The notes beneath the pieces were generated by a model that ran no database searches, was not told the DNA's origin, and saw only the letters and a program-made list of their open reading frames with translations. Made by a program: the position numbers and the translations under genes. From the NCBI RefSeq assembly GCF_963921235.1, contig NC_086097.1, positions 157,792,001 through 157,856,000 of the forward strand: a stretch of DNA of 64,000 nt. Direction: 5' to 3'. Shown here in pieces: positions 1-63,499 of this stretch (position 1 is the stretch's first letter; each line of letters begins with the position of its first letter). This DNA is from Mobula hypostoma (lineage: Eukaryota).

Positions 1-385
1 GCCCCACCTTCTCCTTCACCATTCCCCATTCCTGTTTCCCTCTCTCACCTAATCTCCTTACCTGCCAATCACCTCCCTCTGGTGCTCCACCCCCTTCACT
101 TTATTCCATGCTCTTCAATACTTTCCTATCAGATTTCCCGAATCCTCTTGATCTCTTTCACCAATCGACTTCCCAGCTCTTTACTTCACCCGTCCCCCTC
201 CCAATTTCATCTATCACCTGCCACCTTGTCCTCCTTTCTCCCCTCCCCCCACCTTCTAACCCTGCCATCTCCCCTTCTTTTCCAGTCCTGAAGAAGACTC
301 TTGGCCCGAAACGTTGACAGTTTACTCTTTTCTTTAGATGCTGCCTGGCCTGCTGAGTTCCTCCATCATTTTGCGTGTGTTGTCT
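1..385 (+). mobile_element. Penelope-like terminal repeat (pyrimidine-rich, degenerate hammerhead motif at 283-320)
   Basis: Ends in ...gatgctgcctggcctgctgagttcctccatcattttgcgtgtgttg, the same repeat that follows the GIY-YIG Penelope 3' end at 28118-28540 and forms the hairpins at 21159 and 61634. Confidence 0.7.
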
Positions 386-4849: not shown

Positions 4850-6000
4850 CAAAGTCAGCAAGGACCTGGACCCATTGCAATTTGCCTATTGCCGCAATAG
4901 CTCAACAGCAGACACAATCTCAGTGGCTCTTCACACGGCTTTAGACGACCTGGACAACACAAAAACCTATATCAGGATGCTGTTCATTGACTAGCACAGC
5001 ATTTAATACCACCATTCCCACAATCCGGATTGACAAGTTGCAGAATCTGATCCTCTGTACCTCCCTTTGCAATTGGATCCACGACTTCCTAACTGGAAGA
5101 CCACAATCTGTGCAGATTGGTGATAACATATCCCCCTCGCTGACGATCAACACTGCAGCACCTCAGGGGTGTGTGCTTAGCCCACTGCTCTACTCTCTAC
5201 ATGCACATGACTGTGTGGCTCAAGCACAGCTCAAATACCATCTATAAATTTGCTGACAATATAATCATTGCTGATACAATCTCAGGTGGTGACGAGAGGG
5301 CATACAGGAGTGAGGTATGCCAACTAGTGGAGTGGTGCCACAGCAACAACGTGGCACTCAACATCAGTAAGACGAGAGAGCTGATTGTGGACTTCAGGAA
5401 GGGTAAGACGAAGGAACACATACCAATCCTCATAGAGGGATCAGAAGTGGAGAGAGTGAGCAGCTTCAAGTTCCTGGGTGTCAAGATCTCTGAGGATCTA
5501 ACCTGGTCCCAACATATCAATGTAGTTATAAAGAAGGCAAGACAGTGGCTATACTTTATTAGGAGTTTGTAGAAATTTGGCATGTCAATAAATACATTCA
5601 AAAACTTCTATAGTTGTACCGTGGAGAGCATTCTGACAGGTTGCATCACTGTCTGGTATGGGGGGTGTTACTGTACAGGACCAAAAGAAGCTGCAGAATG
5701 TTGTAAATCTAGTCAGCTCCACCTTGGGTACTAGCCTACAAAGTACTCATGACATCTTCAGGGAGCGGTGTCTCAGAAAGGCAGCATCCTTTAACAAGGA
5801 CCTCCAGCACCCAGGGCATGCCCTTTTCTCACTATTACCATCAGGTAGGAGGTACAGAAGCCTGAAGACACACACTCAGCTATTCAGGAACAGCTTCTTC
5901 CCCTCTGCCATCTGATTCCTAAATGGACATTGAATCTTTGGACACTACCTCACTTTTATAAATATACAGTATTTCTGTTTTTGCATGTTCTTTAAAAATC
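4850..6000 (+). mobile_element. Rex1/Babar-type LINE, 5'-truncated RT and 3' UTR, with stops and frameshifts
   Basis: [69 protein letters not shown] across broken ORFs. Confidence 0.88.
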
Positions 6001-8360: not shown

Positions 8361-10684
8361 GCTCTAATGGATGGCAGCTGTTTTTGCTTTCCTTTCCTAG
8401 TTTTCTTGGCCTTCTTTGAAACATCTTTAGATGTTGACCATGGCATCAATAGGAACCATATAAACCTGAGCTGCTGCTGTACACTCCGATTACAGGGCCA
8501 AAAACAACATGGGAAGAATAAGGTCAAAAGAAAATAAATTCTAGAAATTGAGACTGACAATCCATTGAAACACTTGTCAGAAATTGTGCTTTGCCCTTTA
8601 AACATTCTATTCATTCAGTTTTTCTATAACAGATGCTTTATTGACCTCTACGTATGTCATTGATTTCAGAGCCAAAATAACCAGATCCAAAATTTGTCCA
8701 CAGTCTTCTTTTGTGAAAACAGTGTGAATGCATTTTTAGAAGGTATTGGCTTGGCAAGTGACAAAGAGGGATATGAGAAATACACAATACGCGTTCTAAG
8801 GGACCTTTATTGGCAGTGCTGTCTGGAGAGACTGAATGTGCTCTTCTCATCTCTTTAAGTCTAATCTAAACTGAACCACCTGCCTCATGAATGTTACCAA
8901 ATGTATCCGATACAGATTACACTCTCTTATCTGAATAAACTGCAAATGGGGATTGAATTTGAATAAATGGCCACTCTGCGTCTAAGATGGAACTTTGCCA
9001 TACAGTTTCCTTTCCGAAATCAACAGTTTATTCAGGAAAACAAAGTCAAGATCCAAGAATGCAGAACGCATGGTGTCATGTTGTAGAAAAATTTAACTTA
9101 GGACATTGCATTTTTGTACTCAAAAGTCATTACTTCTCCTTAACACAAGCAATTTGGTAGCACTATAATCCCAAATGTATAGCGGAACATAGGTTCAGAG
9201 TACATCAATCCTTAGGATGCTTTGCAACACAGCTGGAGAAAAGACATAAAGCAAGAAAGAATTGATGATTGTAAATAAATTTAAGTTGGTAGTAAAAGCA
9301 TGATTTTTTTAAAGATATCTGTCATGTTTGTGGTATGGGAAGCTGGGTGGCCGTGAATTACACACAGGAGAGACAGAGAGGTGAGGAACAAATGTGCTGC
9401 TGTTTTATTTTGCTTGTGAGTCATCTACCCAGAATGCGCTCTCACATTCCGCTCAGTGCACAACACACAGGGAAGCTTGACATCAACCAGTAAGGGTGTG
9501 GTGCTGGAGCCTCCATGATTGCCTTCACCTTTGATGGTGCCTGAGTTGTCGATCACATGGCCCAAATATTCAATTGAAGGTTGAAAGAACTCACACTTCT
9601 CCTTCTGGACACTTAGCCAAAATTCCTTGGGTCTTCGTAGTGACGTATCCAAGTTTTGCAGGTGCTCACGCTCATTTTTCCCAGGAGTGAGTAAGTCATC
9701 CGAACAGAATTGCACCTCTGTTAACCTGCTCAGGATCTGATCCATTGCTCTCTGTAAAAGTACAGGAGCTGACCTGATGCTAAGTGGAAGCCTTTGGTAC
9801 CTGAACATTCCTTTGTGAGTCAGCCGTTCCTGTGACTCTGGTTCCACATACACTTGACACAAGTCAATCTTGCTAAATATCTGTCCTCTGGCCAATCCTG
9901 CATAAAGGTCATCAATGAGGGGCAGAAGGTGTTCAGCTGTCAGTACTGGGTTAATGGTTGCCTTGAAGTCTCCACAAAGTTGTAAAGACCCATCCTTTTT
10001 TAGGACAAGAACCACTGGAGCTGCCATTTTACTTACACACACTGGTTCCAACATTTTACTCTGGAGCAGTCTTTCCAGTTCACCCTCTCCCTTTAGGTTG
10101 AGGGCATATGGGTGCAGTGTCAGGTTAAACAACCATCTTAACAGAGATTCCTTTGGCACTGCTCAGTTCTCCGTTGAATACTTCTACGTGTTTCTTCAAT
10201 ACCTCTTGTAGACCAATGCCCTCACCAGTCATGTGCACTTTGCGCGAGTTGATTTTGAAATGCTCCAACCACAAGCAGCCCAGACATGCTGGATAACTAC
10301 CTTTAACAATGTAGAGTGGAAGTTCCTTTCTCTGCTCATTAATCTCCACCGTAACATGTACTACTCTCCCCACTAGAACAACTTCACCAGTGTAAGTCTT
10401 TAAAATCGACCTTGGTCCGTCTGTGGTGAGATGCTGCAATTTCTCCTTGTAAACTGTCTCTGACACCAGCAATACTGCAGCTCCCGTGTCCACCTGCATC
10501 CTTGCTGTGGCCCCATCCAACCGCAGGGTCACCCAATAGTCATTGCTATGTCCTGAAACAGATAAAACATGCAAAGCTTCTTCAACCACAGAGTGGGAGT
10601 CAGTCCATCCTCAGCATGCTCCACCTTGTTCGCATTTCTTTCTGTTTTTCCAAAGGTCACTTTTCTTTATTACAGTGTTAGTGT

Positions 10685-11548: not shown

Positions 11549-11616
11549 CTAAATTTGGGACGGAGTAAATTGATTGGGTTAAAATTCCCGAAAGAAAGAA
11601 AAGACAAACAGCAGAA

Positions 11617-14469
11617 ATGGAGGTTGAGGAATTTATAAAGGCGCCGACCTTGGAGGCATTAGAGGATGCCAGGAAATCGGAATTGATAGCGGTGGCCAAA
11701 CGGGTGAATCTTGCTAAGGTGAAGTCGACAATGAGGAGAGAGGAGATACACAGAGCTATTGTAGAGCACTATGTATCTAAAGGTGTGTTTCCCCAAGGTG
11801 AGCTGGGGGAGGTGTCTATTGAAAAACCTGCTGGAGACGCGGTACAGGTACAGCTTGAAAAACTGAGACTCGAGCACGAGTTCCGGGTACGGCAGTTAGA
11901 ACACGAAGAGAAGCAGTTAGAAAGGCAGGAGAAAGAGAGAGAGTTAGAAAGGCAGGAGAGGGACAGACAGTTGGAGAGAGAAGAGAGAGAGAGGGACAGA
12001 CAGTTGGAGAGAGAGGAGAAACAGAGGGAAAGGGAATTTGAGCTGGAGAAGTTAAAGATAAGGGCCGAGCAGGGGCTCGTGCCGAACCAAGGTGGAGGGT
12101 TCCGGGCGACCCAGGAGGTTAGGCTGGTTCCCCCATTTGACGATACCGATGTGGATCGGTACTTTCTTCATTTCGAAAAGGTGGCTATAAGTCAGGAATG
12201 GCCGAGGGATAAGTGGGTTGTCTTACTTCAGAGTGTACTGAAAGGGAAGGCCCAACAAGCTTACTCCGCCTTATCCGCGGAAGATGCCCAGAAGTATGAG
12301 GTGGTGAAGGAGGCCATCCTCAGGATTTATGAGTTGGTCCCGGAGGCATACCGGCAGAGGTTTCGGAATGCGAGGAAGCGGTGGGACCGCACGTATTTGG
12401 AGTTTGCTCGTGAGATGCAAACATATTGTGAGCGTTGGTGCGCCTCGAAAGGGGTAGAGGGGGATTATGACAGACTGCTGCAACTGGTTCTGATTGAGCA
12501 GTTTAAAGGTTGTGTCCCTGAGGGTATGAGACCCTACCTCGATGAGAAAGAGGCAGCCACGTTAGCCGCAACTGCTAAGTTAGCGGATGAGTATGCGTTG
12601 ACGCATAAAATGAAGGTTGCCCCGAGTAAAGGCTACCAGAAGGGTAGTCAGGACGGCGGGGAGAGTCCACCGGAAAAGTCAGAAAGTAAGCCGGGGACTA
12701 GTGAAAAGGATAAGGTAGACCGGGAGCAGCCTGGTAGGAAGTCTCCTGGGGTCGTCTGTTATAATTGTGGGAAAGTCGGACACTTTGCGTCCAGGTGCTT
12801 TGCCCCAAGGAAGGAGACGGGGAAAGGAAAAGCGGAAATTTTAAATGGCTGTATCGAGCTGTTAAGCGAACCGCTAGGGAAGGACAGGTCTGAAAAAGTC
12901 CAGGAAGGGCGCGAGAGGTTTATCTCGGCCGGACTGGCGTCAGTGAAGGAGAGGTTAAAACCAGTTCCAGTGCGGATCTGGAGAGACACGGGAGCGTGTC
13001 AGTCACTAATACTGAAGAGTGTATTAGAGTTTAGCTCAGAGACCCAGACTGGGGAGGTAGAGGTCAAAGGTGTTGGGGAAGGGACAGAGTCAGTCCCTTT
13101 GCACCAGATACATTTACAGAGCAACCTGGTCTCTGGACTAGTCACGATCGGGGTGAGGTCCGAATTACCGATGAAAGACGTGGAAGTCTTGCTCGGTAAT
13201 GACATCGCCGGAGGAATCGTGTTCCCAGTCGTGAGATTGACGGGTCAGCCTGCCAGCATGGAGGCCCCGCCCGCGATGGTGAATTTGGCTGAAACATTTC
13301 TGCCAACCTTGTATGAGACAGGGTGTAGTGAGATAAGAGGTAGTGAGGGAGCTGGGACGGACGTAGCAGTAGCCAGGAAAGAATTTGTGCAGACGCAGGA
13401 GCGAGACGAGGGGCTGATGGTTTTGGCCGAGACAGCTCTCTCTGACACAGCCTTGACAAGGGAACTAGTAGGCTATTGTGCGGATGAGGAAGTGCTAAGG
13501 AAGAAAGGGAAATCAAGTACAGCATCCGCAGATGAGGAGTGGGGGGTGGTGCAAAAGAGTTATGGGGATGAGGTTTTTAACATGGCCCACGAGGTACCCC
13601 CCGGTGGACATTTTGCGGTGCTGGAGGAAACAGTTGGTGGAATCATGAAAGAGATTTACCGGCTGCCCAGGGGGAAGAATGTTATTGATCATGACCGACG
13701 CGAACTGAGACGGTCACCGGCTTTTGATATGCTAACAAACCTAGTCGGTGTTAGCGTGGAAATCAATGATGCTAGGGGCCCCTTGATAAGAGGAAAAAAC
13801 CATTTTGAAAAGATTAGGATGGGATCGGTCAGATGGGAGAAGGCTATTGTTTTGGCCAGGTCTACTGATAAGGTCTCTCCCTTAATCCCCGAAGGAGTAA
13901 TTAAACGACTCGCACCCATGTGTTTGATTGTCCCGAGGAAATGCAAAGAACTGGGACGTTGGGTTATGTCGGTTACAATAGGGCGGCCAAGCAAACAACA
14001 CCCATATTTTTTGAGTAATTCAGTGACTAAAGGGCTGATGAACACAGAGGTGTGTATTGGCAATTTAACACGGCTGTCTGAAGCCAGCTTGATAGTGAAC
14101 CTTGGAAAAAATGAATTCGGCCACGCGAATGTCACTTACCTGGGAATTGTGGTGACACAGGGGCAGCTGGCAGTGATGCAAGCTACAGTGCAAGCTATCG
14201 CTGACCTCCCAACCCCGACAGACAAGAGGGCCCTCAGAAGGCTCTTGGAGATGGTGGGGTACTGCAGGAAGTTTTGCAATAACTCTGCGGTCAATACCCG
14301 TCCCCCTCCTACTAAGCCCTTGCGAGAGAAAACTGAGTCGGAATGGGACGACCCTTGTTATTGTGGTCCGGGACAAAACCAAATGAGAGGTTACATTGGT
14401 CGCAATTCATCAGTGTTTTTGGCCACTATGAAGTTTGCTGAGTTGGAGCCTGGTCTAAGGGATTATTAA
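11617..14469 (+). CDS. Gag (coiled coil, SCAN-like domain, CCHC knuckle)-protease fused to eroded IN/RT/RNase H remnants, 950 aa
   Basis: E/R/Q-rich repeat; PEAYRQRFR...LIEQF...KLADEY; CYNCGKVGHFASRC; RDTGA and VLLGND; AHEVPPGGH; EFGHANVTYLGIVV and LEMVGYCRKFC. Confidence 0.92.
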   Translation: MEVEEFIKAPTLEALEDARKSELIAVAKRVNLAKVKSTMRREEIHRAIVEHYVSKGVFPQGELGEVSIEKPAGDAVQVQLEKLRLEHEFRVRQLEHEEKQLERQEKERELERQERDRQLEREERERDRQLEREEKQREREFELEKLKIRAEQGLVPNQGGGFRATQEVRLVPPFDDTDVDRYFLHFEKVAISQEWPRDKWVVLLQSVLKGKAQQAYSALSAEDAQKYEVVKEAILRIYELVPEAYRQRFRNARKRWDRTYLEFAREMQTYCERWCASKGVEGDYDRLLQLVLIEQFKGCVPEGMRPYLDEKEAATLAATAKLADEYALTHKMKVAPSKGYQKGSQDGGESPPEKSESKPGTSEKDKVDREQPGRKSPGVVCYNCGKVGHFASRCFAPRKETGKGKAEILNGCIELLSEPLGKDRSEKVQEGRERFISAGLASVKERLKPVPVRIWRDTGACQSLILKSVLEFSSETQTGEVEVKGVGEGTESVPLHQIHLQSNLVSGLVTIGVRSELPMKDVEVLLGNDIAGGIVFPVVRLTGQPASMEAPPAMVNLAETFLPTLYETGCSEIRGSEGAGTDVAVARKEFVQTQERDEGLMVLAETALSDTALTRELVGYCADEEVLRKKGKSSTASADEEWGVVQKSYGDEVFNMAHEVPPGGHFAVLEETVGGIMKEIYRLPRGKNVIDHDRRELRRSPAFDMLTNLVGVSVEINDARGPLIRGKNHFEKIRMGSVRWEKAIVLARSTDKVSPLIPEGVIKRLAPMCLIVPRKCKELGRWVMSVTIGRPSKQHPYFLSNSVTKGLMNTEVCIGNLTRLSEASLIVNLGKNEFGHANVTYLGIVVTQGQLAVMQATVQAIADLPTPTDKRALRRLLEMVGYCRKFCNNSAVNTRPPPTKPLREKTESEWDDPCYCGPGQNQMRGYIGRNSSVFLATMKFAELEPGLRDY

Positions 14470-15498: not shown

Positions 15499-17507
15499 GT
15501 GTCTTTTTACTTTTACAGGTGCATTCAATATGACCCTTTTTGCCACAACTCCAGCAATACAAATCCTTATACCAGCATTCCTTTTCTGAATGCCCAGTTT
15601 TACCACAAAGGTAACATTGAGGCCAATAGGTCTCTTATTCTTAAAGTCAGTAGAGACTTCATGAACTTGGCAGATATGCTTAACAGGTGTGCTTCTTTAG
15701 CTGCCATCTCCGTGGATGGACTAATCTCCACTGACTTCTGTAATGTTAGTTTGTCTTTTGTAAGTAAATGTTTCTGAATTGCCTCACTACTCAGACCACA
15801 TACCAGTCTATCATGTAACGTGTCATTCAGTGACTGCCCAGAATCACAGTGTTCAGACAATTGCTTCCACACCACCACAAACTGTGAAACAGACCGCCTT
15901 CCTCTTTATTCCTTTTATGAAATCTAAACATCTCAGCGATAATCAATGGTTTAAGAGTACAGTGGTCCTTTGAGACTTGAACTATATTCTCATAAGGCTT
16001 ATCATCCAGTTTAGCAAGTTGCACTAGATGGGTTAATAAATTATACATTTTTGCACCCACAGTCAGAATAGTTGGAACACGAATATCATCTGGAATTTGA
16101 TTTGCCAGTGCAAAATATTCAAATCTTTCAGGATATGAACTCCATTGCTCTTCTGTTCCATCATAATTCCAAACATTGTCACCATTTTCAAAGGCAATCA
16201 CACTCCAGAACAGTTAACCAGTCTTATCCCTCTATTTCTCCTTCTCTTACTTGTTTTATTTAACCAACTCATTCTCATTCCCTCCTCTTCACTCACCATG
16301 CTTCCTGCAGCTTCCTGCAGCTTCCTTGTCGCTCACCCACATTACACAGCGGTACATCACCAACACCTGCACACTGACTTTTTTTTGCCCATGGGAACGC
16401 AACAATATTGTCACCTTGTTACCAGTGGTTACGTTTGTGGGACTGGGAAGTGGAGTGGCCATGAATAATGCGCATGAGAGATGGAGAGAAGAGGAACAAG
16501 CATGCTGTGGTTTATTTTAATTGTAAGTCATCTACCCAGAATGCCCTCTCATATTACGTTCAGTACGTAACACACAGGGAAGCTTGACAGCAGCCTGTAA
16601 GGGTCAAAATATACATGAATAGATTACAGTATTTAATGATTAAAGAAATAAAGCCTATTTATATGTGCATGCAATATCTATGTCCCCTATATATCATTAA
16701 TTATGCAGATAAGGTTCTTCTAAATTAAATATTTTGTTAAAGCTTACAGATAAGTACTGACACGCAGGAAGAACTCCTCCAGCAAGCACTTGTTTTCCAG
16801 CCTCAGCAATTTTCCCACCCAGGTTGAAGATTAACATTTAATGACATTTAGAAACCTCACACAACAACGTAGGATTCTCTCAGCCAACCTCATTTGTTTT
16901 TTTTTCTATGAAGTAGATGAAATTTATTCAAGGAATTCTATATTTCTCCTCTTCAAAGAAATCACTTTCCTTAAAATGAACTGGCAATTATCTTTTATAT
17001 GTATTATTACCCTCCCTATCACACAAGAGGCCATTTGGTCCATCAAGTCTATGCTGGCTCACAGAACAATTTCATTCTCCCACCAACTTTTCCCACAACC
17101 TATTTTCTTCACATTCACATCCATGGCAATTTTGGGAAAATTTACAATGGCTGAATAGCCAATCAACCGGCACCTTGCTGGGATGTGGGAGGAAACACGG
17201 TATAAACTCTATGCAGTCACAAAAAAGATGCCAGACCTAGATGCAGTGGCTTCTATGGGGCCGACAACCAAAGGTGGTTTAAACATATTTGTTACAAGTG
17301 CAAACCCTGCTTTACATTAGGAACTTCAAGTACTGCAGGTCTACCATGTCACTGAGTTGCTTATTGGCAGAGAAATTGGAGGAGCTGGACTTGGTGCAGA
17401 TTGTGCTGCCACCCACATCAGAGAGGTGTCAGAAGAATTGGTGCAAGAAGGCAGAGTGCAGTCTAACAGCTTGTGATCATCTTTGTCGTTTTTCTTGTGA
17501 TCGCAAG

Positions 17508-18315: not shown

Positions 18316-21251
18316 ATTGCAAAACCCTGTTGGACATTGTAAATGTGGCAGCAGGGGCAGACGGCAGGGAAAGTGCAAAGTTTTGGTTGCAGCGAGAACG
18401 AGGTCTCAAGCCTCATTGTCGCTTGTTTAGAGCCTGGAGTCAGGGCTGCCCTCGGTGTTCTCTGGGCAGAGTACAAGCAGTATTCTATTTGACTGCAGAT
18501 TGGTGTAACATTCATGGACTCGGGCTCCTGGACTATATATATATTTTTGTGACTGTATTTTATTAATAGTTTACATACGCTAGATCTTCCTTTTGCTCTG
18601 TATGAGTGCTGCGGTTGTGTTTTGCACCTTGGCTCTGAGTAGCGCTATTTTGTTTGGCTGTATTCATGGATATTCAAGTACGGTAGAATGACACTTAAAC
18701 TTGAACTTGACCGGCTGAGTTCCTCCAGCATCTTGCATGTGTTGCTCTGGAATGCCAGCTTCTGCAGAATCTCTCCTGTTTCTGTGCAGGACTGGAGTTC
18801 AGGTTTGAGCCCAGATCATTGAAACTGTAAAGTAGCAACTCCCCTAACTGCAACACACTGCTGCCCTTTTGCTCCCGGAAGTCACCAACGATGGCAGTAT
18901 TATGCTTAGTGCTCGATGCTGGGTGTATGCCGTCTCCTTCAGGTGGAGCAGCGCCAGTGTGAAGAGGCTCTCGTAGTACAGTCAGCTCAGGAATAACAAA
19001 CTAGGACATTGGATTACAGATTATTATCTAAATCAGGATTGCATGTTGAGGTTGTTCCCTTGGTTTTTTTCCCCTCCTACCTGGTACTAGAAGCCATAAA
19101 GCAAATAGTTCTGAAAACAATTTCGGTATGGTGTTTGATGGCACACACAGAGTCTTAAAATGTGGCAACAAGTGCTGGTGATGTAAGCATGTCCACAGTT
19201 TTGTGTCTGTTGCTGTTGATAAGCTTCTTGATTGATAAGGAAGGGTAAGAAGGTGTTCCAGGTATAGGAGAGCACACAGTTTGTAATTTCCTCCTGCAAT
19301 CAGGCTCACAGGCTTAGAAACATGTCACTGTACCTGGAAATATGTATTGATCCCCCTACAGAATACTTTAACTAAATTGGCTCCAGCAGTTCAAGCGGAA
19401 GACAGTTCATTACTCTTTTAGCAGCAAGCATGAGGAAAATTGCTAGCATGACTAGCAATGATCACCTTCTGAGAATCAATTATAAAAATGAATGTGGTTA
19501 AACATTATAAATATTGGAAAACAAATGATAAAATCATCATCCATTTGAATAGGTGGTTTGACACTTGAAAAGCTATGCACGCATATTTCAGTCAGTTCTG
19601 CATTGCAATGTGATTTCTGATTATGAGCTCAAGCAACTTAGCGAGGCTTGATTCCATAACCTTCTAATTCAGAGAGCAGAGCATTTCCAAATCAGTTAAG
19701 TTGATTAAATAATCTGCTCTTCCTGAGACCTTCTGGCAGTTAGCAATGAAAATCAGGAGCAGATCACTTAGTTGGCTAAAGAGCATTTGCAGTCCTGAAT
19801 TTTCATATGAGTTACCAAAGAAAAAAAATCGATTTTCAAGCATCCAAGAATGTATCATCTAGAACAGTCTATGAAAAATTCAACACAAATCAAGGTGAAA
19901 TTTGTTTAAAATCTAAGAAATTACTTTTAGTCCCAGCAATGTTTGCATTTCAGCAACCAAGTCCACATTGTTAGAAACAAAAGATGTTGGAAATACACAT
20001 CAGAAAAGAAATCAACAGTGGAGAGTGGAGCATGGTTAAATGTTTCAGGTTTTTGACCTTTCATCAGAACCAGGAAGAATTAGAAACTACACGTGATAGG
20101 TTACAGAAAATGTCAAGGCAAAGAGAGAATGAAACTTCGTCATATAAGGCACGACAAAGGGATGCCAAATGTCTCATACGGACGTATGCCCTACTGAGAG
20201 ACAGTGGTGATCTGTCTGGAGGGGATTAAATAAAAGGAAATGAATGAGAGTAAACGAGAGCAAAAGAAAAATGCTGGAAACCTGAAACACAAAGCTCTGT
20301 AGTTGAAGGAAATTTGAAATAAAAGAGAATGAAAATACACAACAGTCAGGCATCTTTATGGAATCTTTTCACAGGATATGTGGAACAGTTCTTTGTTTCA
20401 GCTGTATCTGCTTCCTATATCATATTTTCCAGTGTTAGTGTTGCTTCCTGCTCTGTCACACAACTTGAAAGTCTTGCCATCTTTTCACCAATTTCCACCC
20501 TTCACTCCCTTTCACATTGGCCACCTCTGCACTTTCCTGACTCCTCTATCCTTACCTCAGGGGATAAATTAGTAAAAATATGCACATGACCATTTCCTCA
20601 ATACCTCCTTCAGTGCTGTTTATTCTAAAGATTATGTTTCATGCCCAGAATTTCTCTGGTACATCATCTCCTGACCAGACACATTACCTGTCCTGGTGAC
20701 ACTACTTCTACACCAGTTTCTCCATATAACTTCCTTATCTTTAGCTGTGGTATTCCCTCTGTCACTTCAACTACATCTATTCCATTTCCCATAGTTCTAC
20801 CAGAGAAATTACAGGATTTCCTTTGTGTCTGCCTTCCTTTTCACCAGCTTCCCCAATTTACCATTTTCAACAGGATTTTATTGATAAACATATCTCCTCC
20901 TCTCTACTCTTGTTGGCATCCTGAAAGATTGATTCTCTCGACAACTCCATGGATCTCTCCTGCATTTCCACTAGCACTCACTCACCTTATATGTCAGGAT
21001 ACAATTGCCCCTTTACCTCTTTCACTTCCACCGTCCAGGGAATCTAACAAACTGTTTAGGTGAAACAGTGATTCATGTTACTTCCTGCATTCTAGTATAT
21101 TGCAATGTTTGCAATGGGGTCTCTTCTATACTAGAGAAACCAAACATAGATTAGTGATCACGAGAAAATCTGCAGATGCTGGAAATTCAAGCAACACACA
21201 CAAAATGCTGGTGGAACGCAGAAGGCCAGGCAGCATCTATAGGAAGAAGTG

Positions 21252-21289
21252 CAGTCGACGTTTTGGGCTGAGACCCTTCGTCAGGACTA
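21252..21289 (-). ncRNA. Minimal type I hammerhead ribozyme-like motif (one core substitution)
   Basis: Minus strand UAGUC CUGACGA A GGG UCUCAG CCC AAAA CGUC GACUG; GAAA reads AAAA. Confidence 0.6.
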
Positions 21290-21847
21290 ACTGAAAGAAG
21301 AGATAGTAAGAGATTTGAAAGTGGGAGAGGGAGGGGGAGATCTGAAATGATAGGAGAAGACAGGAGGGGGAGGGAAGAAGCTAAGAACTGGAAAGTTGTT
21401 TGGCAAAAGGGATACAGAGTTGGAGAAGGGGGAGGATCATGGGACAGGAGGCTTCGGGAGAAAGAAAGGGGGAGGGGAGCCCAGAGGAAGATGGAGAGCA
21501 GGCAAGGAGTGATTGTGAGAGTGACAGAGAGAGAAGAAAAAAAAGGGGAAATAAAAATAAATAAGGGATGGATCTTCTTTTATTCCCCCCCCCCCTTTTT
21601 TTGCCTTCTCTCTCTGTCCCTCTCTCACTCCTTTCCTGCTCTCCATCTTCCTTTGGACTTCCCTCCCCCTTTCCTTCTCCCCAGGCCTCCTGTCCCATGA
21701 TCCTCCCCCTTCTCCAACTCTGTATCCCTTTTGCCAATCAACTTTCCAGCTTTTAGCTTCTTCCCTCCCCCTCCTGTCTTCTCCTATCATTTCAGATCTC
21801 CCCCTCCCCCCCCCACTTTCAAATCTCTTACTATCTCTTTTTTCAGT

Positions 21848-21885
21848 TAGTCCTGACGAAGGGTTTCAGCCCGAAACGTCAACTG
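21848..21885 (+). ncRNA. Minimal type I hammerhead ribozyme-like motif
   Basis: UAGUC CUGACGA A GGG UUUCAG CCC GAAA CGUC AACUG; intact core, one stem I mismatch. Confidence 0.65.
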
Positions 21886-22913
21886 TACTTCTTCCTATAG
21901 ATGCTGCCTGGCCTGCTGCATTCCACCAGCTTTTGGTGTGTGTTGCATAGATTAGTGATGGTAGAATACCTCACTGAGTTGGCTTGGATGACCCTTACGC
22001 TTCAGTTGTCCGTCACCTTAATTCTCAGTCATATGTCCATTCTGACTGCTCTGTCTGGTCCTTTACATAAACGTTAATATAAGTGATAGCTTCTTACCTC
22101 CCAACAGGGTATGAATCTCCCATTAGGACTCAACACTGCATTCAGAAACAATCTTTTCCAGATCGAATGAGAACTGGCCAGTTTTGATTATGGTCATAAA
22201 GTTGTAATTTTAGCTTTGCTTTTCACTATGCATAGAAGCTGCTTGATCTGCTGAAGATTTCTAGCATTCTCTTTGATGTCATGTTTTATGTAAATCTAAT
22301 GTCTTATACCTTATGCTTCCACCATTGATTTTTTTCTCAGTTCTGTATTCTCATTCATCTCCTTACTACAGCTCCTCCAGACTGATATGGGTGCAGTTAA
22401 TCCTTCTAGACTCCACCTTCACTCTGATATTTCCTTTGTTCTCTTCACCCCTTTTCTGGAATTTAAAACTTAGTTGCTTTCTAAATTTTTCCTGGTTCTG
22501 AGGAAAGATCAACATGAAATATTCACTTTGATTTCCTCCCTCATTGGATACTGCCTCACCTTCTGAATTTTTCCAATGTCTTCAGATTTCTAGCATCTGT
22601 TTTTCAAAACACACTGGCAACAATTTATTCCAGTAAAATATAAGGTGGATAATATTTGAACATAGTCAACAATTTAGCATTGATACCAAGTTGAGAATTA
22701 GGGAAGGGATAGAAGATATTGAGTAAACATGTGAATTTCCATATTTCCTCACATCATAGGTTTTTTTTCCAATTGACCCACATTAAGTCTGTTCTGCATC
22801 ATCCCTCATTAATTTCCCCTATAATGTATCCCCCAAATTCCCATCAATTCTACCACCCATATACCTGAGGGGCAATTTTACGTTTGCCAATTAGCCTTCC
22901 TTATCACACCCCA

Positions 22914-24217
22914 CAGTTGCAACTGTTCAACAGACGATGCCATTGCCATTAGCCTTCCCCTGGCCTTAACCGACCTGGACAAAAAAGACACGTACGTTCA
23001 AATGTTGTTCATAGACTTCAGTACAGCATTCAACACAGTCATTCCTCAGAAACTGATTGGAAAGCTGAGCCTGCTGGGCCTGAACACTTCCCTCTGCAAC
23101 TGGATCCTCAGCTTCCTGACTGGGAGACCTCAGTCAGTCCGAATTGGTAGCAGCATCTCGAAAACCATCACACTGAGCACTGTGTGCTCAGTCCACTGCT
23201 GTTCACTCTGCTGACCCACGACTGTGCTGCAACACACAGCTCGAACCACATCATCAAGTTGGCTGATGACACAACGGTGGTAGGTCTTATCAGCTAGAAC
23301 GGGAGTCAGCATACAGAGAGGAGGTGCAGCGGCTAGCGGACTGGTGCAGAGCCAACAACCTGTCTCTGAATGTGAACAAAACAAAAGAGATGGTTGTTGA
23401 CTTCAGGAGGAAACGGAATGACCACTGTCCGCTGAACATCGACGACTCCTCCGTAGAGATCATTAAGAGCACCAAATTTCTTGGTGTTCACCTGGCGGAG
23501 AATCTCACCTGGTCCCTCAACACCAGCAAAGAAAGCCCAGCAGCATCTCTACTTTCTGTGAAGACTGAGAAACGTCCATCTCCCACTCATCCATCCTCAC
23601 CACATTCTACAGAGGTTGTATTGAGAGCATCCTGAGCAGCTGCATCACTGCCTGGTTCGGAAATCGTACCATCTCGGATCACAAGACCCTGCAGCGGATA
23701 GTGAGGTCAGTTGAGAAGATCATCGGGGTCTTTCTTCCCGCCATCACAGACATTTACACCATACACTGCATCCGCAAAGCAAACAGCATTATGAAGGACC
23801 CCACGCACCCCTCATATAAACTCTCTCCCTCCTGCCATCTGGAAAAAGGCACCAAAGCATTCAGGCTCTCATGACCAGACTATGTTACAGTTTCTTCCCC
23901 AAACCATCAGACTCCTCAATACCCAGAGCCTGGCTTGACACCAACCTACTATACTCTCTACTGTGCCTGCTGTCTTGTTTATTATTTACTATTATTTATT
24001 GTAATGCCTGCACTGTTTTGTGCACTTTATGCAGTCCTGGATAGGTCTGTAGTCTAGTGTAGTTTTTGTGTTTTTTTCTTACGTAGTTCAGTGTAGTTTT
24101 TGTATTGTTTCATGTAGCACCATGGTCCTGGAAAACGTTGTCTCATTTTTACTATGTTCTGTAGCAGCAGTTATGGTTGAAATGACAATAAAAAGTGACT
24201 TGACATCACTTGACTTG
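22914..24217 (+). mobile_element. Rex1/Babar-type LINE, 5'-truncated, with 3' UTR and (tgact)n tail
   Basis: [57 protein letters not shown]. Confidence 0.88.
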
Positions 24218-26460: not shown

Positions 26461-28117
26461 AAAGAAATAGTTCATAACATAATTCATAGTTCATAACAAA
26501 AGATAGTTTTAGATATCCTTTTCTGAGACCTCACCTCATGCTTTATAGATACATCCACTGGAGTTTGTTTAGGAACAGTGTGTTTCAGACACACACAAAC
26601 AGCTAAAACCACACAAAGACAATCAAACAGCAAGAAGGCTAGGAAAACCCAAGTACTGGGAGAGTAGATGCCAATGTAAATACATGCAGTTCAGCATGTT
26701 AGGATACAAACAAGAAAATATATTAAACCAAGGAATTGTAATCTAAGAGTAGGGAGGAGAAGAATAAAAACAATTAGTCAGAGACTCATGACTTATGAGC
26801 TGAAAAAGCCTTCTTAAGTGATAACCTCAAAGTGTCTTAATGGTGTAATTATCTTCTCGTTGAACAGTTAAAAACAAATTGCTGTCTCCATTTTAAAACA
26901 ATAAAATAACCTTGATAGGATTGCCAATAAATTAAACTCTTGTTTATTATTCCAAGGGGCAAAATCTTACAGGTGTAAGGTTCACTTACAGAGATCACTT
27001 CCATACATTCCTCTTGAAAAAGTCCCAAAGTGACGATTAAAGTGCTACTTAAATCCCTATACAGAGGGGAAGCAAAATAAAGCAGACTACAGTATAATCT
27101 GGATGCTACCTGCTACCACAGGTATTTTGCCTTGTAAGCAGACAGTCACTCAAATGGACTTGAAGGATAATAAGCAGTGGGAAAACAAGTTCGTCAGAAA
27201 TTTGTTAATTGAGCATATAGGTAAATACAAGCCTGTTCATGGAGCAAAGGGATTCAAATTCACAAGAAGTTTTGCAGACACAATAGGAAGACATTACTTC
27301 CACCAGCCATGGAATCAGTAACCCAATGGGATAAATTCAAGAGAAAGTCAGTAAGATTTTCTGTACTTCATCATAAATAGTGATAGAAACAAAATCCTTA
27401 ACAGCTTTGAAAATCAGTGGATGTGGGTACTGGAAAGGAAAGGACTTATGAGTAATGATAGTGTGATAGGGCTAACTGAATAGTGCTTTCAGAGCACTGT
27501 CCCAAATACAATAAGCCAATGTTCTCCATCTGTGCTGTGAAATTTCATGCTTCAAAATGTAAATTCTTGCCAGTTAATATGTTGTTCCCAGCAAAGCCTA
27601 TTCAAGATGCAATTTGTCTCTGTACTTTGGGAATTGTTTTAACTCCTTTCTTTTCCTAAAAACATTGTTGAGTATTAGCTAAGCATAAGATTTCTTCTGC
27701 ACAGACATTTTCGTTTAAGTTTTCAGCTGCAGCTTGATTCACAGATTGAAGGTCACCTTCCACTGCTTTCTGCTGTAGTCTGCACTATTCATCACTCATT
27801 ATTGGCCCATAGAAATGTAACTGAATCATTGAAATGTGATAATGCTCTGTTCTTCAGGGATCAGGATTATGACAGCATCGCAGAATTGTGGAACTCTTCC
27901 CAGATCTGTCTGTATCCATCCCAGAAGACAACCTATCTACTAACAATTATTATAAATCTATTGACTTGTTAGCTCAGGCATAAAATGCAAAGCTACAGAA
28001 AAAATAATTAGTAACAATTTAGGCCATAATCCACAGTTCCAGCAACAGCCTTGGTTGCACCTGCTTCTACCCAGTCTCTCGTAAGCGTTCCATCCTTTTT
28101 GTTCTGTTCAACACTCA

Positions 28118-29110
28118 CTAAATGCTGTAGGAACTCAGCAAGTCAGGCAGCATCTGATGAAGGACATAATCAGTCAACATTTTGGGCTGAGACCCCTCAT
28201 CAAGACTGGAAAAGAAGGGGGGTGGAATCCAGAGTATGAGTGTGGGGGGAGGAGAATTAGTATAGGCTGTCATGTGAGACATGAGACCAGGTGAGGGAAG
28301 TGATAGGTGGGTGGAGAGGGAATAGGTGAAAGAGCTAAATGATTGAAGAAGATGAAATCTGATAGGAAAAGACAATGAAATCTGATAGGATAGGATAGGA
28401 AAGAAAAAAAAGGAAGAGGGAAACCTGAGGAAGGCAAATGGGTAGGTGAGGAGAATAGAAAGGGAGCGAGGATAACCAGAATGAGGAATATAAAAAGAGA
28501 GAAGGAAGTTGGGAGGAAGAAATCACCAGGAGTTAGAAAAACCAATGTTCATTCCATCTGGTTGGAGGCTACCTAGACAGAATGAGGTGTTGCTCCTCCA
28601 ATGTGAATTTGGCCTCAACATGGTAGTGGAGGAGGCCATGGACAGACACATCAAAATGGGAATGGGAATGGGAAGTTGAATTGAAAAGGGTATATACTGG
28701 AGATCCTGCCATTTGTAGTGGACAGAGTGATGGTGCTCAATGAAACAGTACACCATTCCATGTTGGGACTCTCTAACATAGAGGAGGATACAATGGATGA
28801 CCCTAACAGACTTGCAGGTAAAGTATCACCACACTGTTTAGGGGCCCTAAATAGCGGTGAGGGAGGAGGTGTAGGGGCAAGTGTAGTGTTTGTCATACTT
28901 GCAGGGATAATTGTCCAGAGAGAGATCAGTGGGGAGGGATGATTGGACAAGAGAGTCATGAGAACATTGATCCCCATGGAAAGTGGAGAGAGGATGAGGG
29001 AAAGATGAGCTTAGCGGTAGGATCCTGTTGTAGGTGATGGAAGTTCTCGAGAATGATGTACTGGATCTGGAGGTTCGAGACAAGGACAAGGGAAACCCCA
29101 TCCCTGTTAT
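28118..29110 (-). mobile_element. Penelope-like element 3' portion (GIY-YIG region plus terminal repeat)
   Basis: Minus frames give YPCKYDKHYTCPYTSSLTAI and FCLGSLQPDGMNIGFSNS, followed by the pyrimidine-rich terminal repeat with a degenerate hammerhead at 28171-28208. Confidence 0.8.
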
Positions 29111-29365
29111 GACAGTGTGATGGCTCTCAGTTTCTCTATCTCTGCCATGACTGTTCTCAAGGTGAGGCTTTTCAGGAACTATGGCTTCCGCTCTATCTTG
29201 GTTGATGAAGCCCTCCCTTGCACTTCCTCCATTCCTCAGACTTCTGCTCTCAGCCCCTTCATGGGAATGGAGACAGAAAATTCCTTTGGTCCTTTTGTTT
29301 CACTCTACCAGTATCTGCTTTCAGCATATCATCCTTCATAATTTCTACCAGCTTCCAGCAGTTTG
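29111..29365 (+). mobile_element. Inverted Penelope-like fragment joined to the preceding element
   Basis: Overlaps, in opposite orientation, the region ending at 29110 (SLLFQHIILHNF-like versus acatcattctcgagaacttcc on minus). Confidence 0.55.
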
Positions 29366-34999: not shown

Positions 35000-35300
35000 T
35001 TCAGATGGAGACACAAGAGACAGGAAATGTTCTAATCAGGTACAAACAAGAAACGGCTGGAGGAACTCAGCTGCTCAGGATGCATCAGTGGAGATAGAGA
35101 GAAGGCAATATTTCAGCTTGAGCCTGTGCATCAGGATAGAGAATGTAGAGGATAGATAGAGATGAGTAAAAAGGGTGAGGTGGAGGCTAGCAGGTGATAG
35201 GTGAGGAGGGGATGATGGACAGATGGAGCCAGAAGGGGGAGGGAAGGTGGAGATGGAGGGAGATTCAAAAGTGATAGGCATAGACACAGAAGACTACAGA
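35000..35300 (-). mobile_element. Penelope-like terminal repeat fragment
   Basis: gctggaggaactcagc...gcatc followed by a purine-rich tract as in other copies. Confidence 0.55.
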
Positions 35301-40820: not shown

Positions 40821-42104
40821 GGAATCAGCATTATTTTTCATGTTTTTCCCATTTTAGACAAACATAAAACTTTGTTGACTCAGTACAATAAAGTATAAGC
40901 AAAATGCAACAGATGTTGGGAACCTGAAATAATTTTTAAAAAAGATAAATTAACACATCACATTTGGCAGCATATGCCATGTCTTCCTTTTAGCTTTTAT
41001 CAGAACTGTTCATAGCAGAAAGATAGGGAAAAGATCAAGTAAAACTCAAATGGGAAAAATCAGAACACCTGTGGAAATTCAATAAGTAAAAGATTATTGA
41101 AGGATCTCCAGAAGTGTTTTCATTACAACTATTCAATCTATCTCGAACAATTTAATGATAATGCACATAGCAGTATCAGTTCTATCCTTGTTTAAAAAGA
41201 TTATTTAGTTGAGGAAATGTTCAGAGATTTGTTTTTGTGCAACTCAGGAATAACATGAACCTTTTTTCTCTTGAAAGAGGCCTTACAGCACAACTTCAAG
41301 CAGCACTGGAGACAAGATACCAGATTTGTATTTATTGTGGAAAAGGTGGAAGATTAATTAAAGTGGAAGACATGTTGCCCTGCTATTGAAAATTAGGTCA
41401 ATGCCTGTTCTGCCTCTAGAGGCACTGCTTAGTAGATGTACTTTGAAGGAAACGTTATGTTTATTGCTCATCACTATTAGGCTACCATCGTGCCACGAGT
41501 TCACTCTGGTCTACATGGCATAGTTATGGAATGTTGCATGTATATATTACCTTGGTTAACACTAATCATGAGAATAATTGATAATATTAGTATATTCAGG
41601 CATGCGACAATTCTGTATTTAATCGAAAAAATCTGTTACTTAACTTTCTACTCTTTCACAAATTTATCTCATTAAAAACCCTGAAGAAAGCTTCGAGCTC
41701 GGGTGATTTTGGATAAGGCATTTAACTCCCTGTCTAGCTTTGTACACAATGCACTGTAAGGGCAGTAGAGTCCTAATCTATAAAGTTTAGGCTGCCCTTG
41801 AGGCCTGAGTGTTATGCAACTAAACAATTAACATACACAATGATCTTTTGTTTATAGATTGGAAGCTGAGGAAAGTGTGGCTTAGAATGGTCAAGGGTTG
41901 GTGTCATACAAACAAACACAAGCGATTGTTTCAATTTTCCTTCACCTTCTCCATCTCCAGTAAACAGAATGAACAAATGTGGCTGCAGATCTGAACTATG
42001 GGAGATGTCCACATGTAACAAAACTGCATAGTCCCTTCATATGGAATCCAAAAGCTTACAAATTTATAAACACACAGGACTCCCATCTGCAACACATTGC
42101 AACA

Positions 42105-43951: not shown

Positions 43952-44330
43952 AACACACACAAAACTGTAGAGAAACTCAGCAAGTCAGGCAGCATCTAAT
44001 GAAATGAATAAACCATCATGTTTCAGACTGAGACCTGTATCATGAGGGTGGGGGGTGGAGGAAGCCAGAATAAGTAGGTGGGGGGAGGGGAAGAAGTACA
44101 AGCTATTAGGATAGGTAAGGGGAGGGGGTATGAAGAAAGAAGCTGGAAAAGTGAAAGATGGAAAAGGTAAAGGGCTGGAGAAGAAGGAATTTGATAGGAG
44201 AGGAGAGTGGACCATGGGAGAAGGAGACAGGGGTGGGGGGGGGGGGCACCAGCAGGAGCTGATAGACAGGTGAGAAGAGAAGAAACATGGGGCAGAGTTG
44301 GGGATTGATGACGATGGAAGGGGAAGGACT
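43952..44330 (-). mobile_element. Penelope-like terminal repeat
   Basis: aacacacacaaaact...aactcagcaagtcaggcagcatcta plus purine tract. Confidence 0.65.
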
Positions 44331-49670: not shown

Positions 49671-50469
49671 AAATTTTATGCCTCTAAGTGGCCTCAATTC
49701 ACAATTTTAAACAAAAAAAACTGCTATTGGAATTTAGCAGGTCAGGCAGCATCTGTGGAGGGAAATAGAATCTGGACAAACAGCCATGATCAAGAACATC
49801 AAGTGTCCATTTCCCTCCGCAGATGCTGCCTGATCTGGTAGATTCATCCTGTAGTTCACTTATAGGTCCAGGTTCCAACATTTGTAGTCTCTTGTGTCTC
49901 CTTGCAATGTTTTAAATCTTCATTTCATTTTTCTCATTTTAGCATTATATCTCAAAAGTTGTTACAGAACTGTGTCTGCTATGATTCAAGTCATGCATGG
50001 AACAGGAATTTGATTTTTTTTTGATGAGATTTTCTCTGCAAAGACAAACAGAAGGAGAACATGATTGTCTTGATCCCAAATTCCCATTAATAAATGTTAA
50101 TGATCCTGCCTGGCATTCTAAGTAGCGGCACTGATACAAACTAGAGAGTTATGCTGGGCCAAATTGAAGTCAATAAAAGAGACACAAATTTTTAACTTCA
50201 TTATGTCATTACTGACGACCTTGCAATCAACATCATAACAGAGGGCAAATTCTGTTTAATTTCACTCATCAAATAAGACTATAGTCAACCAATTAACATC
50301 AGTTTAACAGAACTAAATTGGAAATGTCTGTGGAGCTCACAGTAAAACCAAAGCAACTACACATCACTTGGAATAAAATATAATCACTTTCTTTAATAAT
50401 GTAAAGGAGAGCATAACTTAATGTGTGCTAAAAATGCAGCCTTCAGTCTTGAAGAGAAGCAGTTTGCCA

Positions 50470-52879: not shown

Positions 52880-53170
52880 ATGGAAATCAAACAAAAAGTG
52901 CAAATGCTGGAAATTGGAAATAAAAAAATAAAGTACTGGAAATGCCCAGCAGGTGTGGTAGCATAAACACAAGAGGTACTGCAGATGCTGGAAATCAAGA
53001 GCAATATGCACAATGTGCTGAAGGAGCTCAGCAGGTCATGATGGAAATGAGCAGTTCATATTTCGAGTTTAGACCCTTCATGAGGACTGGGAGCATCTGT
53101 TGAAAGGACCTCAGTTAACTTCTCTTTCTCTAGATATTGCTTAACCTGCTGAGTGCCTTTAGCATTTTCT
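52880..53170. mobile_element. Cluster of Penelope-terminal repeat fragments
   Basis: ctgcagatgctggaaatc...gagctcagcaggtca...gacccttcatgaggactgg. Confidence 0.55.
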
Positions 53171-53175
53171 ATGTT

Positions 53176-60415: not shown

Positions 60416-61633
60416 ATTTAATGCTAACTACATTGCATGGCAAATTACATTGAACTATTTTTGCAAAGAAATAGAAAAGAATCGCGATTCAAAGTTGGGG
60501 ACCCATTGCAAATAGTTGTAATGTCAGTTGACATCTTTAAGAAAGGAACAGAAATACTTCACTGACCTGAGTTGTGAGTGAGTGACAACTACACAAAAAA
60601 ATGCATTCTGACACAAATTATGATCTTGTATCCTCTTATTGGAAGGTCAGAAACAACTACTTAAACACACAATGTATATACATTTTCACCCTAAAATAAA
60701 TGGATTAACCATACATTATTACAATATTGTTTGTGGAACCTTGCATATAGATGTACCACAGCTATGTATATTACAAAGCAACTGACTTCAAAGATACAGT
60801 ACTCCATTGGCTACAAAGCTGTCCTAAGGTCAAGAAAGGTGCTTCCTAAATAGAAGTCTTTCTTTTCTTTCCATTTTTATTTCATGTGGAACAGAAACGG
60901 TTTAAATGGCATTGCATAATCCAGCTTGAAACCAGAGTGGAAAATTGAAAGTGACTTGGCAGTTGGACTGGTAATGGAAAATTTTAATCGCTCTTGAAGA
61001 ACTTGCTAGCTGAGTGATCACTGATACCTGATTAGTATAGAAACAGATTTGGTAGCAGCTAAGGGAACAGACAATTAATCTGAAGCTTCACAAGCAAAGT
61101 CACAGAGAAAATGGTGTAGAATATCAAATAGCCCAATATCCAAATATCCACTTCTTCATAGCACAGTTGACTAAATTTAAACTCAAAATGCACTCAGATA
61201 TCTCTTCTGTCTCCCTTACCATACATATCCTCTCATCCCACTACCAACCACTACCACACAGCAGCTTACTGTCATCAGGAGCAGTGCAGAATTCCTCTGA
61301 TAATTTCATATTTTGTTATTTGAAGACACTGATTTTAAATGGAATATGGTTCATTTTTAAAAGATGTCTTTAGTGTGCAAAATTGTATTTATCGCTTATT
61401 TTTAGTTACCCTACAGGGAAGATTGTTAGCCCTTTCAGAGGAAAAATTTAAAGGGGCCCCCAGGGGTGGATTTTACACACACAGAGTACGGCAGGTATAT
61501 AGAACAAATTGCTGGAGGAAGAAATAGAGGCAAGTAAAGATACCTTTAAAGGCATTTGAACAGGTTTATAATCAGGAAAGGTTTACAGGGAAATGAATCA
61601 AATGCGGGCAAATTGGACAGTTCTTAGCTGGCA

Positions 61634-61854
61634 ACACACATCAAAGTTGCTGGTGAACGCAGCAGGCCAGGCAGCATCTATAGGAGGAGGTGCAGTCAAC
61701 GTTTCAGCCCGAGACCCTTTGTCAGGACGAAGGGTCTCGGCCTGAAACGTCAACTGCACCTCTTCCTACAGATGCTGCCTGGCCTGCTGCGTTCACCAGC
61801 AACTTTGATGTGTGTTGCTTGAATTTCCAGCATCTGCAGAATTCCTGTTGTTTG
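61634..61854. mobile_element. Fold-back Penelope-terminal-repeat insertion with 15-bp TSD inside a CR1 tail
   Basis: Arms 61631-61723 and 61726-61818 with 2-nt loop; TSD agttcttagctggca at 61619-61633 and 61855-61869. Confidence 0.9.
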
Positions 61855-62524
61855 AGTTCTTAGCTGGCATGGGTGAGTTTAATCGAAGAACTTGTTTCCA
61901 TGCTGTACAATTCCACATACAATCAAAACAATCCCATTTCTGATGCCACTTGTACCAATGTGGAATTAGAGTTTGGGAAAGAGGGGGAGGTGCATTGAAG
62001 AGGAACAAAAGAATAGTTCTGTTGTGACAGTGTCTCTTCTATTGTCTATTAGGACACAGAGCAGGTAGGAGATAGCAAAGAAACCTAAATAAATTGCAGA
62101 TGTGCATCTGGTAAATGCAGGAGTCAGACACCATGTACTCTGATGTGAATGCTCCAATCCTTCACTAAAATAATCTTGGATTTAGATTTGATACCTCAAT
62201 GAAAATCAAAAACAAAAACAGATACAAGAAATCTATAATAATAATAATAAAAAAGAGAATACTGGAAATACTCAGCATGTGTGGAAAAAGTTAAATGTTT
62301 CAGACTGAAAATTTCTTCAGAACTCAGATGCAGTAGTGCATGTGCATTTAGCTTTGCTTATGAAATTTGGTTTCATTAAATTTGATAAGAGTTTAACTTC
62401 ATAAGCAAAATGAAAATTGAATATAAAACTCCATTCAGGAACAAATCCCTATCACAAAAATTGACCTAAAAGATTTTACAAGTGTGCATGTTTCCTTCAG
62501 TGTGTACATATGTAGATGTTAAAA

Positions 62525-62645
62525 GCACACAGAAAATGCTGAAGGAACTCAGCAGATCAGGCAGCATCCATGAAGAGAAATAAATAGTAAAGCTGAGACC
62601 CTTCATCTCACCTGGTGAGTTCCTCCAGCATTTTGTATGTGTTCC
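62525..62645. mobile_element. Short inverted Penelope-terminal repeat remnant
   Basis: aaaatgctgaaggaactca ... tgagttcctccagcatttt inverted ends. Confidence 0.6.
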
Positions 62646-63499
62646 CCAGTGTGCATTCATATTCATTATCTAGTTTCAACAAACTTATAACATAGAGTAG
62701 TACAGCACAGCACAGGAACAGCCCCTTTGGAGCACAATGTTAAGCAGAACTAAGTAAACTGCTATGTAATTACTTAACTAAACTAGTCTTCTGCCTGCAC
62801 AGTGTATATAGCTTGCTATGTATGTCTGCAGAAGAAGAATCTCAGTGTTGTATGTGTTACGTAGCTGCTCTGATAATAAATTTTACTTTGATCTTATATC
62901 TCTCCATTTTCTGTAGATTCATGTACCTTTCTCAGAGCCTCTTAAAGACCTCTATCACATTTGCTTCTACTACCACCCTTTGCAGTGCATTCCAGGCATA
63001 TACTGTGTAAAAACAGCTTGCTCCACACTTCCCCTTTGTTTTTAAACCACTTCCCACCACCTGCTCCCCCCCCCCCCCACTTTTACCTTAAATGCAAAGT
63101 CTCTATTAGTCAATATTTTGACTTTTGACACAGGGAGTTTCATTAGTTGAAACACATATTATTTCACACTGTCAAAAACTTCCTTAAATGTGACCCTGTC
63201 CTTGATGTGAGTAGCAGAGGCTCACATTCAGAACAAACAATGCTGCCATCACTTTGGATGAAGACATCAAAGTGAAACCTTATTCCAGTCAAAAGTAACT
63301 GAAAACAGAAAATGCTGGAAACAAGCAGGTTGGGCTGCATCCATGAGAAAGGAACAGAGTTAACATTTCAAGTTGAAGACCCTTTATCAGAAATGGGAAA
63401 GAGATAAGAGAAGCTTGATAAGCTGAAGAGAGGGTGATTTAGAGGGTGGAAGATGTCTGTGATAGAGTTAAGCAGGGGTGACCATGAGGATAAACTCTT

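Follow-up and report, generated by a model that had tools for sequence, protein, structure and literature searches.

The window analysed here, a stretch of 64 kb (64,000 nt) from Mobula hypostoma, contains at 21848-21885(+) a 38-nt motif that an earlier note had taken for a minimal hammerhead ribozyme of a Penelope-like element (PLE), which raises the question whether it really is one and whether its self-cleavage is needed by the element that carries it. The coordinates proved correct and all hammerhead parts could be located on the plus strand: the 5' strand of stem I (21848-52), the CUGACGA core box (21853-59), an extra A (21860), the two strands of stem II (21861-64/21869-72) closed by a loop of 4 nt, the GAAA core box (21873-76), CGUC (21877-80) with the GUC triplet and C17 at 21880, and the 3' strand of stem I (21881-85). 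Both core boxes are intact. The two stems that had been claimed are present and could be refined to a stem I of 5 bp with a Y-G closing pair and a stem II with a fourth U.G pair. The core C3 U4 G5 A6 N7 G8 A9 ... G12 A13 A14 A15.1, U16.1 H17 is found in this copy and in 102,343 genomic matches, and the pair G10.1-C11.1 is also present. A change G1.1>A, which comes from CpG decay, has left a C2.1.A1.1 mispair at 21852/21881 adjoining the cut site, so the copy fails the filter for an intact pair beside the cut site that is used in PMC3088659. It is unlikely to cut and is an ordinary decayed remnant that was dead on arrival. The motif as such is a genuine minimal type I hammerhead sequence in the pseudo-LTR (pLTR) of a PLE. 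An Rfam scan of the 64-kb window with E up to 5 gave 35 matches and none to a hammerhead family, the only ones on the inverted repeat being low-complexity matches to miRNA models, all below the gathering score. A loose core pattern matched the window 9 times against 3.9 expected, a mild enrichment as 3 of 100 shuffles also reached 9.

The flagged motif lies in a 5'-truncated inverted insertion at 21159-21945, whose arms are 90% complementary over 365 nt and which is flanked by 14-bp target-site duplications at 21145..21158(+) and 21946..21959(+). Its sense arm (21570..21945, +), a piece of PLE 3' UTR/pLTR that matches the 3' repeat of the near-intact copy L043 across 284 nt with 81% identity, ends ~65 nt past C17 and has no tail. 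The antisense arm (21159..21548, -) carries the hammerhead at 21252-21289 with the change G12>A, and the ~35-nt PLE tail at about 21159-21191 is found on this arm alone. The insertion landed in an older decayed PLE linker/endonuclease remnant (20862..21153, +; tblastn E 1.4e-4, a weak match), which continues weakly at 22002-22055 (tblastn E 0.042).

All five motif places that had been named before and all six places that had been listed as decayed match the profile of the repeat end, with E from 4.5e-26 to 0.0018. The six (about 20040, 22495, 44015, 53055, 62295 and 63360) are repeat copies as claimed, but those at 20040, 22495 and 63360 are not merely more decayed. The copy at ~20040 (19978..20070, -; L132) belongs to the older subfamily D (U2.1, A10.1-U11.1) with stems of its own, AGUU/AACU and AGGUC/GACCU, and the decayed old D-like copies at 22495..22582(+) and 63306..63392(-) resemble it. 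A perfect motif was found in none of the window copies examined. In the 5'-truncated pLTR copy at 145..382(+) stem II of the hammerhead (283-320) is broken. The hammerhead at 28171-28208 shows C3>U and G12>A and stands with the 3' UTR at the end of a 5'-truncated PLE (28109..29120, -) behind a GIY-YIG remnant at 28531-29120 (tblastn E 6e-31). The 61693(-) copy has G8>A, and the 61718(+) copy has no CUGA because its 5' end is an inversion joint; here a short palindromic insertion (61632..61854, both strands), joined inside the hammerhead, ends at +67 on its minus arm and at +102, with the tail, on its plus arm and is flanked by a 15-bp duplication at 61619 and 61855. Further profile matches are the decayed copy at 43957..44040(-), the decayed inverted pair at 53009..53172, the strongly decayed copy at 62259..62324(-; E 0.0018) and a decayed copy at 62529..62639(-) whose motif has an internal deletion, together with a decayed copy at 35051..35136(-) and a decayed inverted pair at 49717..49856 which were absent from the earlier note. 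The copies of the window are thus 5'-truncated and often inverted, with target duplications of 14-15 bp, and no close direct tandem of two copies on one strand was found in it. A transcript through an inverted copy pair would form a long hairpin.

Other elements also left their traces in the window. A 966-aa stop-to-stop frame at 11569-14469(+) with gag-, zinc-knuckle-, protease- and RT-like stretches resembles what we take to be an LTR-retrotransposon gag-pol, and similar fragments were seen at 9425-10610(-), 15827-16213(-) and 55159-55704(+). A 628-aa frame at 41973-43859(+) presumably resembles a CR1-type LINE reverse transcriptase, and further LINE-like remnants are located at 942-1923, 5144-5572 and 22825-23635.

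The 102,343 matches were obtained in the 3.48-Gb genome with the pattern CTGANGAN{11,16}GAAACGTH, compared with 593 for the reversed pattern, which rules out a chance motif. The high copy number that had been suspected is borne out by these intact cores as well as by a profile-scaled total of ~0.7 million: the profile found 127 copies in 60 evenly spaced 10-kb stretches of eight large contigs and 0 in reversed sequence (600 kb), from which about 0.74 +/- 0.14 million copies were scaled, a figure that comes from large contigs only. The strict core was seen 14 times in the 60 stretches vs 17.7 expected from the genome count. It is common to find palindromic short insertions with the joint in the hammerhead or immediately upstream of it; the first 100 cores listed include 4 pairs no more than 100 bp apart (contig C1: 109236-109334, 1088319-1088431, 1935495-1935575 and 2546808-2546871). 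Two old-subfamily motifs (L136/L137; C2:177446150 and 177447549) are identical and share a strand at a distance of 1.4 kb, which makes them a local tandem duplication. The repeat end (L043:1900-2300) is also covered by contigs from four other organisms, which have both C and T at position 11.1 and which cannot show RNA ends or expression. The PLE family with this motif is common to relatives, and the repeat resembles, as we assume, repeats of cartilaginous fishes.

The link to a PLE is confirmed by the coding part of the element. Long reverse transcriptase (RT) or GIY-YIG frames were present upstream of the repeat end in 4 of 30 fetched loci (L003, L014, L021 and L025). A genome search with an RT piece gave 81,004 candidates, 150 of which were scored, and the 12 loci with the longest-looking open frames were taken from them as a selected set. 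In all 12 the repeat follows 3' of the frame, in 11 of them with an intact motif, and in 5 of the 12 a second motif is found in the 5' direct repeat. In L043 a single ORF, read from the first ATG ~138 nt past the upstream cut site, encodes 1,016 aa with RT and, at the C terminus, a GIY-YIG domain. Direct repeats of 1,054 bp and a target duplication of 14 bp lie on either side of the frame; four more loci have such repeats. Pfam assigned RVT_1 (E 5e-5) and GIY-YIG (E 0.13) to the element protein, both under the cut-off, and gave no match for four partial frames. In the Atlas it matches, at 0.98, clusters that carry RVT_1 and GIY-YIG, and a PDB sequence search gave no match below E 0.27. The residues DKG, YIDD, a CX4CX2C linker, GVIY..YIG and a CCHH-type motif could be assigned. 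The linker between RT and endonuclease (EN), CKRNKCYTC at residue 883, is of the CX2-5CxxC type that marks Neptune/Nematis rather than Penelope/Poseidon (PMC8557442), and the element is likely an EN+ PLE of Neptune (or Nematis) type, a clade call from one linker motif. In L048 and L052 an internal tandem duplication of ~210 bp in the proline/serine-rich N-terminal part keeps the frame open. Just 3' of the motif, AGAUGCUG is complementary to CAGCAUCU in the tail (L043:2020-2090, about +19 to +89), and the stretch between them, for which nested hairpins are predicted, is retained in all subfamilies. It may act as a start structure for RT.

Of 268 profile hits, 225 were aligned once duplicates and those too short had been set aside, and 34 motif-picked copies were then dropped. 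Four groups emerge among the remaining 191: A, which is young, B, C, and D, which is old. CUGA-GA, GAAA, the extra A and ACGU are retained across A, B, C and D together with the adjoining stem pairs; the extra base between A9 and 10.1 is A in 92 of 95 random copies having a base there, and the palindromic 15.2-16.2 stretch without loop 3 reads ACGU in the subfamily majorities. This suggests that the fold, and possibly catalysis, has long been under selection, and it counts against the preferred reading given below. A pooled covariation test of the 191 copies was discarded: 10.1/11.1 were unassociated (p 0.78) and several non-paired columns were as strong as 2.1/1.1. As subfamily structure or kinship and CpG decay confound such a test, we used one conditioned on U17, which takes away the CpG at 17/1.1. 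Under this condition 1.1 is A in 17 of 24 old-D copies vs 1 of 30 C2.1 controls (p 1e-7), the D copies coming from 25 loci that were picked solely by what lies 5' of the cut, less one tandem duplicate, and in unselected copies it is A in 6 of 10 vs 1 of 30 controls (p 3e-4). Thus C2.1-G1.1 became U2.1-A1.1, one compensatory event in stem I which separates old from young subfamilies. The covariation that the earlier note had asked for is therefore there as one independently tested two-sided change, but it is thin. At 10.1-11.1 groups B and C have G-C, the youngest A has G.U (17 of 20 random copies), and variants of the G10.1.U11.1 type occur in published PLE hammerheads (PMC4209133 supplement). 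In old D, 11.1 is U in 24 of 28 copies with A at 10.1 and in 17 of 22 with G at 10.1, and thus there is no covariation within D; U or C was counted by eye at 10.1 in 7 of 57 D copies. Outer stem I positions are mispaired (A.C, C.C) in C and D.

Of 57 copy 3' ends none is within 5 nt of the cut site. At the start of contig C1, where the subfamily filter removed 13 of 64 motifs, 51 young copies remain, and their 3' ends form two clusters, near +65 and +102 from the cut site, with 26 ends at +55 to +74, 21 at +100 to +114 and none below +40. Their 5' ends pile up at -45 to -26 (13 of 51, the bins that follow having 4, 2 and 1), roughly half being inversion joints; a single fixed 5' start point was not found among these copies, as the starts spread over this range. 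A separate, earlier set had 0 of 73 5' ends between -15 and +10. Genome-wide junction patterns gave 211 matches at +1, 389 at -28 and 44 at +16, a rough comparison owing to differing anchors. About 80 of 100 among the matches listed at +1 were by eye element-derived joints using the stem I GAC(T) overlap, inversions were confirmed in the fetched examples, and cDNA snap-back explains such joints without cleavage. Unrelated flanks account for about 20 of the 100 listed at +1, or ~40 in all, vs 15-22 of 44 at +16, and this 2-3-fold excess may reflect a small cleaved fraction. From the copy ends, the inserted RNA was likely mostly uncut when it was reverse-transcribed. ViennaRNA predicts for the young monomer an inactive hairpin with the core GACG paired with CGUC (-11.0 vs -7.0 kcal/mol), for two molecules an inactive duplex (-30.3) rather than the active dimer (-11.5), and a near-zero probability for the hammerhead stems in a 180 nt context. 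These predicted inactive folds would agree with PMC4209133, in which activity was low, and with PMC11167929, in which protein was needed.

A subfamily with C at position 6 (A6C) bears directly on the need for cleavage. A 31-letter pattern with CUGCYGA had 481 exact genomic matches and 0 in controls. In random sequence C was present at this position in 11 of 91 copies with a base there, corresponding to 9 independent insertions, which scale to about 52,000 (24,000-99,000) in the genome. C6 occurs with a first downstream mark in 9 of 11 vs 10 of 52 copies (p 1.5e-4) and with a second, unlinked one in 9 of 11 vs 14 of 58 (p 5e-4), and being tied to two unlinked marks it is a lineage trait and not scattered mutation. 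Endonuclease remnants were found upstream of the motif in at least 3 of 10 fetched A6C loci (L124, L125 and L126). The A6C subfamily does not have the minimal hammerhead core, and A6 is kept (22 of 22 copies with a base there), as are all other core bases, in the subfamily that is youngest and most abundant. In two other hammerheads A6C caused a sharp loss of cleavage in Mg2+ but not in Mn2+ (PMC7151607, PMC3088659), and by analogy it would likely impair cleavage in the PLE motif too. As the A6C subfamily has spread although this change cripples Mg2+ cleavage elsewhere, cleavage may be dispensable for spreading. It is even possible, if still doubtful, that we are looking at a natural knockout, in which the spread of A6C and the copy ends that ignore the cut site show self-cleavage to be unneeded for retrotransposition in vivo, the motif being an RNA brake or a cDNA stop/snap-back hairpin and not a processing enzyme. 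A6C RNAs could also have been cut in trans by normal partners or mobilised by other subfamilies.

Taken together, the locus is in our view quite probably explained by a minimal hammerhead in the pLTR of a very-high-copy PLE, which would cut weakly, as a dimer and likely helped by protein, with new copies likely arising from uncut RNA. According to the literature ACGU cannot close stem III within one molecule, and it takes a pair of motifs, in which each is cut by the core of the other. Reverse transcription would begin at two internal sites and give copies with and without the tail, and it would pass through the intact motif, both steps being drawn from the literature; as the copy data suggest, cDNAs would often halt just past the motif at -45 to -26, and the motif stems would provide microhomology for inverted joints. 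Cleavage would then do no more than process or damp tandem transcripts and would not be required for insertion. The model of Cervera & de la Pena 2014, in which dimeric hammerheads cut tandem PLE transcripts at both pLTRs in vivo and the products, unit-length or circular RNA, serve as template or are translated, seems improbable for this family. The core and flanking pairs retained in four subfamilies with one compensatory change speak for such a processing ribozyme, as do the motif pairs in the direct repeats of 5 of 12 long copies, the modest excess of 5' junctions at +1 and the weak cleavage of PLE hammerhead dimers in vitro (PMC4209133); it is contradicted by 3' ends that are absent from the cut site, by +1 junctions that make up well under 1% of ~100,000 young cores and mostly use stem I microhomology, by the amplification of an A6C subfamily, and by anole RNA-seq, in which reads neither begin nor end at the hammerhead site (PMC11167929).

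Very unlikely, too, is a motif that no longer cuts in this lineage and persists either by serving as a structural hairpin close to promoter or RT start or by hitch-hiking in the pLTR. Such a vestige would agree with the A6C subfamily, with G10.1.U11.1 in 17 of 20 random young copies of the youngest subfamily, with the predicted inactive folds and with the 13 of 51 5' ends gathered at -45 to -26, yet this youngest and most abundant subfamily retains A6 and every other core base, the same G.U variant is present in published PLE hammerheads, and, given protein, the homologous motif of the anole does cut (PMC11167929). Hardly credible is a non-autonomous retrozyme, in which tandem hammerhead repeats make circular RNA, and so is a motif that arose in a repeat by chance. 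The copies are mostly short and non-coding like retrozymes, and PLE-derived retrozymes have been described in a study that sampled one chondrichthyan (10.64898/2026.07.22.740005), but what is copied here is the end of a coding element, with 5' truncation; the copies are scattered or inverted and form no head-to-tail arrays, and the motif is minimal rather than canonical. For the window copies the retrozyme reading is refuted by the endonuclease remnant at 28531-29120 upstream of the motif and by the identity to L043.

With ~100,000 intact cores and distinct subfamilies (A6/C6; G-C, G.U and A-U at 10.1-11.1) this genome offers natural variants for cleavage assays, its PLE copies are a fossil record of template ends, and the A6C subfamily is the one lead that could make the question of hammerhead function, called unclear by Craig et al. 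2021 (PMC8557442), directly testable.

The class of motif has been known since 2014, when minimal type I hammerheads in metazoan PLE pLTRs were described by Cervera & de la Pena (PMC4209133), and the family described here is a further member of it; the extra A, the palindromic ACGU and the background of dimer cleavage given in the earlier note agree with their work. A search limited to paper listings found no paper on this PLE family or on an A6C PLE subfamily; such a subfamily was not found in the part of PMC4209133 used for comparison, and a term search of its supplement file 2 gave no cartilaginous-fish terms. The hammerheads of PMC4209133 share with ours the order of CUGANGA, an extra nucleotide, stem II, GAAA, a palindromic CG and UH, a short stem I, a U-rich 5' flank and one motif per pLTR, and there too solo copies are the majority and inverted pairs occur on opposite strands. 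In contrast, stem II is shorter here (4 bp, tetraloop) than in most of their examples, and the copy number is ~10 times their 9,000 in Xenopus and 4,000 in the coelacanth, counted here with a pattern that differs from their descriptor; for axolotl 126,247 canonical hammerhead motifs have been reported (PMC7229834). The hammerhead of phage Bcep176 (PMC3088659, PMC7151607) has the same A6C core change, CUGA to CUGC, but it is a single phage ribozyme, whereas in this genome the change is carried by a retrotransposon subfamily that is known from sequence alone and was inserted tens of thousands of times. A further comparison is PAc, a Poseidon element from Anolis carolinensis, whose hammerhead cuts only with protein and whose catalytic mutants insert normally (Frangieh et al. 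2024, PMC11167929). The two elements differ in that the PAc start codon is inside the hammerhead (PMC11167929) and the first ATG here ~138 nt past the cut site, and in that the protein here has the CX4CX2C linker of Neptune/Nematis, unlike Penelope/Poseidon elements such as PAc (PMC8557442). They are alike in having two end points downstream of the hammerhead and copies with or without a 30-40-nt tail, which in PAc lies between two RT starts, and this likeness probably extends to the use of uncut RNA as template and the priming of both target strands, which PMC11167929 describes for PAc.
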